Assembly: GCA_965231065.1 (NCBI GenBank)
Contig: OZ246410.1
Location: 323,046 to 387,045 of the forward strand
DNA length: 64,000 nucleotides
From: an uncultured Methanosarcinales archaeon
Lineage (GTDB): Archaea; Nanobdellota; Nanobdellia; Woesearchaeales; UBA10107
Direction of reading: 5' to 3'
Under the pieces are notes generated by a model that had not been told where the DNA came from, did not search any database, and saw nothing but the letters and a program-made list of their open reading frames with translations. The position numbers were made by a program, and so were the translations under genes. Below are positions 16,390-19,528 of the stretch, piece after piece (position 1 is the first letter of the stretch; the number at the start of each line of letters is the position of its first letter).

Positions 16390-16725
16390 TTATTTTCTTT
16401 TAACCCGCTGTATTGCAGTCTCTCGCACAACCTTTGTGATGGTCTGTTGCATCTCGTCCATGATTACATACAGTCTGAAGTTCAGATAGAACAGCAATAT
16501 GACTGCGACATACAGTATAAGATCGGCCGGTCTTCCGATACCAAGGAATGTCGAGACGTATCCTAGTGAAGTCGGCGTTATGATGGCAAATATTGCAAAG
16601 ACCCAGACGATAGTCCAGAACAAGACCTCGAATTTCTTGATAGTCCCTTCTTTGAATCTCAGATATACTCTGCTCAGTGCAAACAGCACGAACACGATTA
16701 ACAATATTTGTATTGGTTCTACCAT
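16390..16725 (-). CDS. Small 3-4 TM membrane protein (DUF2304-like accessory of Dol-P-sugar GT2 systems)
   Basis: 111 aa, hydrophobic helices with a basic C-terminal tail; overlaps the upstream GT2 stop. Confidence 0.5.
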   Translation of the reverse strand: MVEPIQILLIVFVLFALSRVYLRFKEGTIKKFEVLFWTIVWVFAIFAIITPTSLGYVSTFLGIGRPADLILYVAVILLFYLNFRLYVIMDEMQQTITKVVRETAIQRVKRK

Positions 16726-17411
16726 TATTGCATCAGTCTCCGAAGCATAGTCTTGATTGCGATCTCGACACCTTTCAGCAGATGGAATCTGCCGTGGTGC
16801 GTATGTTCTTTTGAGTACTCAGTATATTTAATGGTTACGGACACTTCCTGATATCGAACCTTCTTCTTGAAGACCTCGATCAGGATCTCAGAAGCATGCT
16901 CCATCTTGTCTTGTTTTATCTCAATCTTCTCGGCTGCTTTCCGTGACATTGCGCGGAAGCCGCATTGCGAATCAGTCAATCTGACGCCATAGAACATCCG
17001 TAAGAACAGTCTCCCGAGCACTAAGATGAACCGTTTTGACGGCGGTATGTTGGACGTCTTTCCGAGGAATCGCGATCCCATAGTAATATCGGCTTTTCCC
17101 TTGACAATCGGCGCTATCATCGCCGGAATGTCCTCCGCCTGCATCTGTCCGTCTGCATCGAAATGGACAATGATGTCAGCGCCATGACGCAATGCATATT
17201 CGTTGCCGGTGACCAATGAAGCTCCCTGGCCACGATTAACGATGTGAGTTAATACGGTCGCTCCTCTCTGCCGTGCGATCTTTTCAGTATTGTCCTTCGA
17301 ATTATCATTGACGACGATGATGTTGTGATATCCGTGATGTTTCAGCGTATCAACAACTCTGCCGATTGATTTCTCTTCGTCATGCGCCGGAATTACGATG
17401 AATATCTTCAT
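16725..17411 (-). CDS. GT2 polyprenyl-phosphate (dolichyl-P) sugar synthase, DPM1/AglD/ArnC-like
   Basis: MKIFIVIPAHDEE...VVNDNSKDNT...HFDADGQ...QCGFRA motifs. Start trimmed to M29 at 17411, giving an ATGA overlap with the upstream stop. Confidence 0.75.
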   Translation of the reverse strand: MKIFIVIPAHDEEKSIGRVVDTLKHHGYHNIIVVNDNSKDNTEKIARQRGATVLTHIVNRGQGASLVTGNEYALRHGADIIVHFDADGQMQAEDIPAMIAPIVKGKADITMGSRFLGKTSNIPPSKRFILVLGRLFLRMFYGVRLTDSQCGFRAMSRKAAEKIEIKQDKMEHASEILIEVFKKKVRYQEVSVTIKYTEYSKEHTHHGRFHLLKGVEIAIKTMLRRLMQ

Positions 17412-18130
17412 TTTGCGATCACCCGTCCTAATAATCTGAGGTAGCCGATAATTGTCTTCAGTTTCTTCATCTTGCTCTTGCCGATGACTCTCCACTTGAA
17501 GATGATCGGCACTTCATACATGCTGAATCCTGCTTTCTTCGCACAGATAAGAAGTTCCGGGTAATATTCGAAATTTCTGAATACAGTCTTGTTCTTGATC
17601 TTATCTATGACTTTTCGTTTGTATAATCTGTATCCTGAGGTCTTGTCTTTGACCCACAATCCAGTAAGGATCGAAAGTATCTTGTTCATCCACTTGCTCA
17701 GGGTCACTTTCCACAGCGGCATGCCTTCCATCTTGCCGCCTTTGATATACCGTGAACCGATGATGATATCCTTATCTGTCTTTTCCATCGCAGCGATGAA
17801 CATCGGCAATTCTTCCGGTTGGTGATTCAAATCAGCATCCAATGTCAATACATGTGTCGCATCTCTTGAAACTGCATCAAAACCAGCTCTGAATGCAGGA
17901 CCGACACCGATCGGCCCGGGGTAATACAACGTCCTGATCTTGCTCATGCCTTTCTTCTTCATCTGTATTAAACTATTATATCCGCTCTTCTCTTTGGTGC
18001 CCTGCAATACATAAAGCAGTTCAAAGTCAATGTTCAGTTTCTTGAAGACCCTATAGAACCGTTCGGCAAGTTTCTCTACATTCCCTGCTTCATCGTAAGC
18101 AGGCATCACGACTGAGATTTTCATCTTCAT
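17408..18130 (-). CDS. GT2 polyprenyl-phosphate sugar synthase-like
   Basis: MKMKISVVMPAYDEAGN...TLDADLNHQPEE; start trimmed to M16 at 18130, with an ATGA overlap. Confidence 0.7.
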   Translation of the reverse strand: MKMKISVVMPAYDEAGNVEKLAERFYRVFKKLNIDFELLYVLQGTKEKSGYNSLIQMKKKGMSKIRTLYYPGPIGVGPAFRAGFDAVSRDATHVLTLDADLNHQPEELPMFIAAMEKTDKDIIIGSRYIKGGKMEGMPLWKVTLSKWMNKILSILTGLWVKDKTSGYRLYKRKVIDKIKNKTVFRNFEYYPELLICAKKAGFSMYEVPIIFKWRVIGKSKMKKLKTIIGYLRLLGRVIAK

Positions 18131-18468
18131 ACGACAAAAGTCACCCCGATGATGATGAGCAGTATGCCGAGCCATTTGTATTTATTCATCTTTTCATTGA
18201 GATACTTCATCGATAATAGGTTGACCCAGACATAATTCAACGAGGCGATCGGATACAGCACGGTTAATTCGTGGCCTCGCAATGCGACGACGAAGATGAT
18301 CGATGACAGTCCGTAGAAGAACAGACCGGTCAGTAGTATGTAATTCGTAAGAACATGCACTAGTTTTTTATGTGTTCGCATAGAGCCGAACTTCAGTCCC
18401 ATCTGTCCGAGTCCGGCGCAGATCGAAGAGATCACTGCAAGCGCTATGGAGATAATTTGGGTATTCAT
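18127..18468 (-). CDS. Small 4-TM SMR/EamA-like membrane protein (ArnE/ArnF- or GtrA-like flippase subunit candidate)
   Basis: About 113 aa from MNTQIISIAL; four hydrophobic helices; ALRGHELTVLYPI motif. Start trimmed to 18468, overlapping the upstream stop. Confidence 0.55.
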   Translation of the reverse strand: MNTQIISIALAVISSICAGLGQMGLKFGSMRTHKKLVHVLTNYILLTGLFFYGLSSIIFVVALRGHELTVLYPIASLNYVWVNLLSMKYLNEKMNKYKWLGILLIIIGVTFVV

Positions 18469-18836
18469 CGCTGTCTCCCTTTGCCGACCAAGGCGACACC
18501 GGCGATGATGATCAGGACACCGAGCCATTTATGCAGTGTCATGGAATCAGTATGGAAAAATATCGGCGATAAGATGCCTACCCAGATGAAACTGGTGGCC
18601 ATAACCGGATAGATCACTGTCAACTCTCCATGGCGCAGGGCCTTTATCATGAACAATAATCCGATGCCGTATGAGAATAAGCCAAGATACAGGAAGTGAT
18701 TGAACAGTAGTGATGCGACATCAGTCAGCTTGTTCGCAGCGAATTTGAAGAAGATCTGACCGATGGAACCGAAGAATGCAGCGATTGCTATGAGGGTGAT
18801 GCCAAGCACTGTTGTCTTTTCCCTTTTTTGTTTCAT
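18465..18836 (-). CDS. Small 4-TM SMR/EamA-like membrane protein, paralog of the previous gene (second flippase subunit candidate)
   Basis: 123 aa; ALRHGELTVIYPVMATSFIWVGIL; TGATG overlap with the upstream GT2. Confidence 0.55.
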   Translation of the reverse strand: MKQKREKTTVLGITLIAIAAFFGSIGQIFFKFAANKLTDVASLLFNHFLYLGLFSYGIGLLFMIKALRHGELTVIYPVMATSFIWVGILSPIFFHTDSMTLHKWLGVLIIIAGVALVGKGRQR

Positions 18837-19528
18837 CAGTATCTCCCTAATAAATCATTGAACTCTATTTTGAGTAATTCGAATAATGTCTTTGGATAAT
18901 CAAGGATGGTGACTTTTGTGTCTCTGCTGTTGATCCAGGTGACTGGTTGTTCCTTAATTGAATATCTTTTTTTCTGCGCTATGTGCAATATTTCGAAATC
19001 AAAACCGAAGCGATCGATTGTTTGTTTCGTGAACAATGGATGAATGGTACTTCTTCTGAACAGTTTGAAGCCACATTGGGTGTCTCGTATGCCTTTCACC
19101 GCAATCAGGGATATAAATACGTTTCCAATCTTTCCAAGGAGTGCACGATACCATCTGTTCTGTACCCGCGCACCTTTCAATGCGCGTGATCCGATGACAA
19201 TATCATATTTCTGTATCAGCGAGAGGAAGGTATCGAGCTCCTCGATCGGTGTCGAGAGATCCGCATCGGTAAATAAGGCATAGTCTCCGTTCGCCAATAG
19301 CATCCCTTCCTTGATCGAATATCCTTTTCCTCTATTTTTTCTCTTTGCGGTAAGTATGATTTTTTTGAATTTCTTCACTTCTGAACGCGTATTGTCTGTG
19401 CTGCCGTCATCGACAATGATGATCTCGTGACTGAGCTTCTTTTTCTCGAGGTACCTTTGTATCGTGCGTATCGTCGCACCGATGTGTTTCCCTTCGTTAT
19501 ATGCAGGAATGATGACTGAGATCTTCAT
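18836..19528 (-). CDS. GT2 polyprenyl-phosphate sugar synthase (ArnC/DPM1-like)
   Basis: MKISVIIPAYNEGKHI...IIVDDGSTDNT...FTDADLSTP...QCGFKLF. Confidence 0.75.
   Translation of the reverse strand: MKISVIIPAYNEGKHIGATIRTIQRYLEKKKLSHEIIIVDDGSTDNTRSEVKKFKKIILTAKRKNRGKGYSIKEGMLLANGDYALFTDADLSTPIEELDTFLSLIQKYDIVIGSRALKGARVQNRWYRALLGKIGNVFISLIAVKGIRDTQCGFKLFRRSTIHPLFTKQTIDRFGFDFEILHIAQKKRYSIKEQPVTWINSRDTKVTILDYPKTLFELLKIEFNDLLGRY

Follow-up and report, generated by a model that had tools for sequence, protein, structure and literature searches.

How monosaccharide-charged dolichyl phosphate passes across the membrane is an open question in archaea, as it is for the scramblases of the eukaryotic endoplasmic reticulum (ER), and only the Wzx-like proteins AglR and Agl15 have so far been implicated in archaea. 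Bearing on this question are two adjoining genes in a 64,000-nucleotide stretch of contig OZ246410.1 (assembly GCA_965231065.1, positions 323,046 to 387,045 of the forward strand; the whole stretch is termed the window below), from an uncultured archaeon placed in the Woesearchaeales. The two genes encode small proteins with four transmembrane (TM) segments, EamA-B and EamA-A (B and A hereafter), and lie among genes for family 2 glycosyltransferases (GT2) and membrane glycosyltransferases of the GT-C fold. By analogy with characterized systems, we favor with moderate confidence a reading in which a GT2 would synthesize a dolichyl-phosphate-linked sugar, probably an N-acetylhexosamine (HexNAc), A and B would form its flippase and GT-C enzymes would complete the system.

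Six genes on the minus strand run in the order GT2a (18836-19528, 230 amino acids (aa)), B (18465-18836, 123 aa, the first small subunit), A (18127-18468, 113 aa counted from MNTQ, the second small subunit), GT2b (17408-18130, 240 aa), GT2c (16725-17411, 228 aa, without a TM segment) and a small DUF2304 membrane protein (16390-16725, 111 aa). An earlier reading of the same DNA (the initial annotation) gave this strand, these open reading frames (ORFs) and this order, all of which agree with the ORF list, and Logan's independent gene calls for this contig delineate identical genes of 230, 123, 113, 240, 228 and 111 aa. The MNTQ start of A is backed by homologs of 112-113 aa.

A and B are mutual paralogs (36% identity, E = 1e-22), as the initial annotation had proposed, and the motifs that it quoted are found as ALRGHELTVLYPI in A and ALRHGELTVIYPV in B. 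Both proteins pass the Pfam gathering threshold of the EamA family (PF00892; 37.9 bits for B and 31.7 bits for A vs 28.2 bits); neither matches Multi_Drug_Res (PF00893) at E ≤ 0.01, and neither has a Pfam match to GtrA (PF04138, GtrA_DPMS_TM). ArnE and ArnF are the top two NCBIfam families for each of them, with 44.6 and 37.2 bits for A and 37.9 and 35.1 bits for B, respectively. Using hhalign, the family profile aligns over its full length with Escherichia coli ArnE (96.3% probability, E = 1.5e-9, 102 columns) and ArnF (88% probability, E = 3.2e-6, 104 columns), and with EmrE over TM4 only, at a probability of 5.4%. No Asp or Glu occurs in TM1 of A or B and the EmrE-type TM1 glutamate (E14) is absent, while a TM1 Gly-Gln...Lys motif (GQ...K) and a TM3 Tyr-Pro (YP) are invariant in the family and common to ArnE. 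The lipid-transport subtype of small multidrug resistance (SMR) proteins, that of ArnE/ArnF, is described as having no central glutamate and keeping the tyrosine switch (PMC9574504).

An AlphaFold2 (AF2) model of B, built from a 38-sequence alignment, comprises four TM helices with a mean predicted local distance difference test score (pLDDT) of 91.6. EmrE and Gdx-Clo protomers are its only meaningful PDB neighbors in Foldseek (TM-scores of 0.61-0.75, probability 1.0, with weak E-values). When the B sequence was searched against solved structures, nothing matched, and no ArnE/ArnF structure surfaced either there or in the Foldseek search with the B model. Taken together, the fold and profile evidence therefore places A and B in the SMR fold and, by sequence, in the EamA/drug-metabolite transporter (DMT) family, with ArnE and ArnF as their nearest characterized relatives. 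The initial annotation had likened the pair to ArnE/ArnF or to GtrA and had suggested an HHpred or Pfam comparison; the comparison returned EamA, neither SMR nor GtrA, and ArnE/ArnF as best matches, which upholds the first likeness in both family and profile and rules out a GtrA identity for want of a PF04138 match.

The structural neighbors bring up a different origin for the pair, namely generic multidrug or guanidinium SMR exporters (EmrE/Qac/Gdx) placed by chance in a glycosylation cluster. Besides EmrE and Gdx-Clo being those neighbors, some databases automatically label homologs ‘EmrE-like cation transporter’ (others carry the label ‘ArnE’), and B has a marginal NCBIfam match to BcrB (E = 0.008). 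We nevertheless rejected a generic EmrE/Qac identity on the missing PF00893 match, the 5% EmrE profile probability and the lack of the essential TM1 Glu in both subunits, and consider a chance placement extremely unlikely in light of the conserved synteny described below. A-type subunits also display a similarity of another kind: A matches PF10639 (TMEM234) at 26.1 bits, under the cut-off of 30.1 bits, and PF10639 is precomputed for most A-type homologs. TMEM234 is an orphan eukaryotic family of the DMT clan, and after a literature check the link stays a sub-threshold similarity.

The distribution of positive charges points to opposite membrane orientations for the two subunits. We computed a Lys/Arg bias as the number of Lys and Arg residues in the termini and loop 2 minus the number in loops 1 and 3, which amounts to +6 for B and -6 for A, and to +3 for ArnF and -5 for ArnE of E. 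coli. Scanning one genome per species yielded 29 tandem pairs from 30 loci, and the bias signs are opposite in 27 of the 29: in these 27 pairs the first gene is positive, the remaining two pairs having first-gene values of 0 or -1, and the second gene is negative throughout. Opposite bias is accepted as the mark of paired SMRs with a fixed, antiparallel topology (PMC9574504). Because A, B and the homologous pairs display it, B is predicted to be N-in/C-in and A N-out/C-out, and the opposite bias marks a predicted antiparallel heterodimer. The order of the genes differs from that of ArnE-ArnF in that the N-in subunit comes first here. The bias signs agree with a pairing of A with ArnE (both negative) and of B with ArnF (both positive), whereas mean identities do not tell the possible pairings apart.

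Subunits group by gene position and not by pair. First-gene subunits are closer to other first-gene subunits than to their own partner in 30 of 30 cases, and the same is true of second-gene subunits in 28 of 30, which indicates from sequence comparison that the duplication into two subunits is old, with a fixed role for each. At loci L005-L007, B and A also overlap by the 4-nt ATGA.

We compared the gene neighborhood across seven distinct Woesearchaeota-type genomes (the window and loci L005/L010, L006, L007/L011, L012, L013 and L014), whose B proteins share 53-67% identity with that of the window. The order B-A-GT2(PpgS-like)-DUF2304 is invariant in all seven, whereas the flanks change. The gene directly upstream of B encodes GT2a in three genomes (window, L011 and L012), a YfhO-like GT-C in three and a family 9 glycosyltransferase (GT9) in one; GT2b occurs in three genomes (window, L012 and L013); and the downstream genes vary, encoding GT9 or family 4 glycosyltransferases (GT4). 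Since B, A, GT2 and DUF2304 stay together while their surroundings change, the conserved core is 16390-18836 and the partner of the pair is the GT2 beside DUF2304, not the bracketing GT2s. The module of the initial annotation, in which GT2s bracket the small proteins, thus holds for the GT2/GT-C context, kept in seven of seven genomes, but not for GT2a and GT2b, each present in only three. The same annotation had named relatives lacking GT2/GT-C neighbors as what would speak for generic exporters; in all seven genomes, the pair sits beside a PpgS-like GT2, DUF2304 and a GT-C gene within two genes upstream, and AglB is encoded within a few genes in most of them.

The initial annotation described every gene junction as ATGA or TGATG. 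Read from the sequence, this is correct for four of them, namely TGATG with a 1-nt overlap between GT2a and B and ATGA with a 4-nt overlap for B/A, A/GT2b and GT2b/GT2c, but not for GT2c/DUF2304, which is TAATG with a 1-nt overlap. We rejected these overlaps as the mark of a module because they are found along the entire minus-strand string of about 19 kb, from aglB (28449) to about 10130, where junctions overlap throughout (e.g. 10891/10894, 11652/11655 and 15269/15272). They represent operon-like packing that is unspecific to the six genes.

The core GT2 and its neighbor resemble known synthase-activator pairs. GT2c matches Glycos_transf_2 in Pfam (2e-22) and its best NCBIfam family is PpgS, a mycobacterial polyprenyl-phospho-GalNAc synthase, with a full-length alignment scoring 165.6 bits, under the cut-off of 370 bits. 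The product of 16390-16725 matches DUF2304 (PF10066) at E = 4e-24 with its full length covered, bearing out its description as a DUF2304-like membrane protein in the initial annotation. GacJ is a DUF2304 protein that complexes with and stimulates GacI, a GlcNAc-phosphate-undecaprenol synthase, and Rv3632 stimulates PpgS (bioRxiv 10.1101/180810). On these similarities, GT2c is a candidate PpgS/GacI-like polyprenyl-phosphate HexNAc synthase and the DUF2304 protein a predicted GacJ/Rv3632-type activator and anchor of the adjoining GT2c. The nearness of GT2c to PpgS and the membership of the DUF2304 protein in the GacJ/Rv3632 family also point, weakly, to HexNAc as the transferred sugar.

The arrangement parallels that of GacI/GacJ in Streptococcus pyogenes and of PpgS/Rv3632/Rv3779 in Mycobacterium tuberculosis: the gene directly after that of the TM-less GT2 (about 230 aa) encodes a DUF2304 protein of some 111 aa. 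GT-C enzymes are encoded nearby, as in the GacI/GacJ/GacK/GacL and PpgS systems, and PpgS is the nearest family to GT2c, although the score of 165.6 bits falls well short of the 370-bit cut-off. The flippase proposed for the S. pyogenes Gac pathway is a Wzx-type protein, whereas an ArnE/ArnF-like pair is the candidate here; to our knowledge, no flippase has been assigned in the mycobacterial PpgS pathway. We recognized no Wzx, MurJ, GtrA-type or Polysacc_synt protein among the window ORFs tested.

The other GT2s are less closely tied to the core. GT2a is similar to PgfS, ArnC and dolichyl-phosphate-hexose transferases (Pfam, NCBIfam), and GT2b is a Glycos_transf_2 protein (Pfam) whose best NCBIfam family is ArnC, at 65 bits, making it ArnC/PgfS-like. 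A further, AglJ-like GT2 is encoded at 23379-24065 on the minus strand (Glycos_transf_2 at 3e-36, 137.5 bits with the AglJ model) and overlaps the PMT_2 gene upstream of it. GtrB and ArnC carry two C-terminal TM helices, which the GT2s found here, of 228-240 aa, do not have. Four nearby GT2s without a TM segment and a single DUF2304 gene, with the small pair flanked by GT2 genes, could mean that A and B are non-transporting anchors or activators of the TM-less GT2s, as DUF2304/GacJ is for GacI and as DPM2/DPM3 are for DPM1. We regard such a role as very unlikely, because the pair keeps a complete SMR transporter fold and opposite-topology pairing, which an anchor does not need, and because in four of the seven genomes B is preceded by a gene other than a GT2.

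Upstream of the six genes, the string encodes a series of GT-C enzymes ending with the oligosaccharyltransferase gene at its head, all on the minus strand. The product of 19530-21512 (a 660-aa gene call) is a PTPS_related, YfhO-like membrane glycosyltransferase, with 42.4 bits for PTPS_related vs a cut-off of 26.4 bits and 26.4 bits for YfhO, under the cut-off of 28.5 bits. The product of 21509-23368 has no Pfam or NCBIfam match and is weakly and collinearly similar to the preceding one. In its AF2 model (pLDDT 85.6), it adopts the GT-C fold, and Foldseek matches GT-C enzymes only, with E-values from 2e-8 to 2e-3, namely STT3, AglB, PglB, AftD, ArnT, AftA and Pmt4. The next gene, 24062-25726, encodes a PMT_2/ArnT-type GT-C (PMT_2 at 2.6e-16, PMT at 2e-8), and 25708-28449 encodes AglB (STT3 at 1.5e-31 and STT3-PglB_core). 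A GT-C assignment thus holds for all three upstream membrane proteins, from families for two and from a model for the third. The ArnT/PMT-like enzyme reported by the initial annotation is borne out; its two YfhO-like proteins are both GT-C enzymes, but neither is a clear YfhO member, one match being sub-threshold and the other protein being without a Pfam family. The window also encodes an archaeal Nre protein and NurA in addition to AglB/STT3. Together with homologs named Woesearchaeota or Nanoarchaeota, these genes lend good support to a DPANN archaeal origin of the DNA.

The presence of a GT2 synthase, a small flippase candidate and a GT-C acting outside recalls the three-component GtrB/GtrA/Gtr* and CsbB/GtcA/YfhO systems, and a YfhO-like GT-C is present here, but the small proteins differ from GtrA-type flippases in having no PF04138 match. 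In Haloferax volcanii, AglD, AglR and AglS mediate addition of a sugar at the outer face from a dolichyl-phosphate-sugar after its translocation (PMC3871713). AglR differs from A and B in being a large Wzx-like protein and not a set of paired 4-TM subunits.

Among the closest parallels is the Arn system of E. coli and Salmonella (ArnC/ArnE-ArnF/ArnT, acting on undecaprenyl-phosphate-Ara4N), with which the locus shares a polyprenyl-phosphate GT2 and a PMT_2-type GT-C in one operon. The small subunits resemble ArnE-ArnF in being encoded by adjoining genes as 4-TM paralogs of about 110-130 aa with opposite Lys/Arg bias, in giving the best sequence and profile matches, in having no TM1 glutamate and in the TM3 Tyr-Pro. 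The two systems differ in that the host here is an archaeon and the carrier presumably dolichol, and in that the ArnA/ArnB/ArnD genes are not in the window: none of the DegT, formyltransferase or deacetylase genes of that linkage occurs in the window cluster, and they are found only at paralogous DPANN loci (L027-L040).

An exhaustive profile search yielded 6293 cluster representatives for the family at E ≤ 1e-3; among the best 150 listed, lengths of 105-140 aa are the rule with few exceptions. Clustering the neighbor genes of 32 loci and annotating the representatives revealed two more archaeal contexts, an Arn-like operon and a place after secF-secD. At ten more distant DPANN loci, a paralogous pair lies within an Arn-like operon (e.g. 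L030:3796-14274). The operon starts with a PMT_2 GT-C, an ArnD-like Polysacc_deac_1 gene, two FemAB-like genes, an ArnB-like DegT gene, the pair and an ArnC-like GT2, and ends with a UDP-GlcNAc 2-epimerase, an NAD epimerase/dehydratase, a hexapeptide acyltransferase and a second DegT gene. A DegT aminotransferase gene at L030:12067-14274 is split by an intein with a LAGLIDADG domain. Two collinear DegT-EamA fusions (P0144 and L027:3384-4796) are only 27% identical to each other and the fusion is thus conserved and no sequencing error. Both fusions put the sugar aminotransferase, a cytoplasmic enzyme, at the N terminus of the N-in subunit, in keeping with the predicted topology, and connect the family with amino-sugar pathways.

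The pair could instead be a heterodimeric DMT/EamA transporter of a small soluble molecule (a sugar, nucleotide sugar, amino-acid derivative or polyamine), through which the glycan pathway would gain or lose a metabolite. Being metabolically dependent, DPANN archaea need importers, and bacterial relatives of the pair lie beside peptidase M19 or SSF symporter genes, not glycosyltransferases. Membership in the EamA family also speaks for such a transporter, since the characterized members move small metabolites (PMC5898192). We judge it rather unlikely given that the best curated and full-length profile matches are ArnE/ArnF, that the pair keeps a tight conserved order with a polyprenyl-phosphate GT2, DUF2304 and GT-C, and that nucleotide-sugar synthesis is encoded in the window itself.

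For the flippase reading that we favor, we infer all activities from the gene structure, families, fold, opposite topology signals and synteny observed here, and they would be ordered as follows. At the cytoplasmic face, the TM-less GT2c, held and activated by the DUF2304 protein, would load a polyprenyl phosphate, taken to be dolichyl phosphate because the host is archaeal, with a sugar from a nucleotide sugar, likely HexNAc. GT2a, GT2b and the AglJ-like GT2 probably build or extend further lipid-linked sugars. The ATGA-coupled genes could yield equal amounts of EamA-B (N-in) and EamA-A (N-out), which would assemble as an antiparallel heterodimer of the SMR fold. The dimer would pass the phospho-sugar head group while the lipid tail remains in the bilayer, as for ArnE/ArnF. 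In each subunit, the path may be lined by the invariant Gln/Lys of TM1 and Tyr-Pro of TM3. The subunits being inverted, the TM1 Lys and a loop-2 Glu of each would lie at opposite faces as possible phosphate entry and exit sites. Because neither subunit has a TM1 carboxylate, the crossing is probably uncoupled facilitated diffusion down a gradient, as conjectured for ArnE/ArnF (PMC9574504). On the outer face, the GT-C enzymes encoded upstream would use the flipped dolichyl-phosphate-sugar to decorate a glycan or a protein, alongside AglB.

Several observations weigh against this flippase reading. The EamA/DMT superfamily of transporters is broad, its substrates including many small molecules, and A and B score far under the ArnE and ArnF equivalog cut-offs (92 and 99 bits, respectively; models NF011625 and NF002816). 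Mean identities fail to sort E. coli ArnE and ArnF into the A or B class, and the transport mechanism of ArnE/ArnF itself lacks biochemical proof (PMC9574504). L007 encodes a separate GtrA-like protein in the same cluster, and the pair therefore need not be the sole translocator. Eight archaeal paralogous pairs directly follow secF-secD and not a GT2. For relatives in Acidobacteriota, Bryobacterales and Clostridia, we found no GT2 or GT-C neighbors, with crude and perhaps unreliable ORF calls on GC-rich contigs.

The secF-secD pairs are located at L016-L019, L021-L023 and L025 (e.g. L021:2129-6929). Some of these loci have a Wzx-like gene in between and also GT4, and L018 carries two pairs in tandem. 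Bacterial tandem EamA pairs (L024, L026, L028, L034 and L038) keep the opposite charge bias; we dropped them as support for a link to glycosylation, their neighbors being unrelated or unrecognized.

Paralogs beside secDF suggest a housekeeping lipid role, which would suit a pair that recycles empty dolichyl phosphate to the cytoplasmic face, a role like that of DedA or DUF368, or that scrambles loaded and empty carrier. The same genetic context is expected of a recycler, and the absence of a TM1 carboxylate fits an uncoupled and possibly bidirectional facilitator. We hold this alternative to be unlikely, as ArnE/ArnF, the nearest of the characterized homologs, have been linked to export of loaded carrier (PMC9574504) and the DegT fusions connect the family with the making of a specific sugar. 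A joint reading of all contexts, which we offer as a long shot, is that tandem small-EamA pairs are ancient cross-domain translocators of polyprenyl-phosphate-sugars, in which the duplication into N-in and N-out subunits took place before the bacterial members and the three archaeal context groups diverged. The secF-secD pairs would then be archaeal housekeeping flippases of dolichyl-phosphate-sugars, and the weak, recurrent similarity of A-type subunits to TMEM234 would make the latter a candidate ER scramblase of dolichyl-phosphate-mannose or dolichyl-phosphate-glucose.

Other genes in and around the string are of interest in their own right. A 490-aa polytopic membrane protein (12697-14169, minus strand) has no Pfam match even at E = 0.1 and is conserved in L012, where a GT9 gene adjoins it. 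A further GT-C, a polymerase or a flippase are among its possible identities. Minus-strand genes at 3025-7675 and 11652-16387 form a set resembling the GDP-glycero-manno-heptose pathway, comprising an epimerase, a transaldolase/FSA, an NTP_transferase-HAD fusion, a SIS isomerase and a GHMP kinase, with three GT9 ‘heptosyltransferase’ genes close by; such a content is unusual for an archaeal glycan cluster. Divergently from aglB, the plus strand at 28641-34217 encodes two unassigned proteins and two with He_PIG/PKD and NPCBM_assoc immunoglobulin-like domains, and these products could plausibly be surface glycoproteins that the cluster modifies.

What is new is that, in DPANN archaea, an ArnE/ArnF-like candidate flippase pair occurs together with a synthase of the GacI/GacJ type and, beside aglB, with several GT-C enzymes. 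Our literature search brought up no account of an ArnE/ArnF-like pair or flippase in archaea, and the main review of the SMR family left out archaea (PMC9574504). The short archaeal EamA proteins of arCOG03427 and arCOG03426 have been described as having no assigned function and no informative context (PMC5898192, Makarova et al. 2015), and our analysis supplies genomic context for short archaeal EamA proteins as a class, with no membership of A or B in these arCOGs implied. The practical value is moderate, as a known bacterial scheme is extended by homology and context in uncultured organisms. The locus nominates a very small, two-gene ArnE/ArnF-like candidate, linked to a GacI/GacJ-type synthase and to GT-C enzymes next to aglB, for the passage of dolichyl-phosphate-sugars across the archaeal membrane, and extends the ‘lipid-transport’ SMR subtype beyond bacteria.

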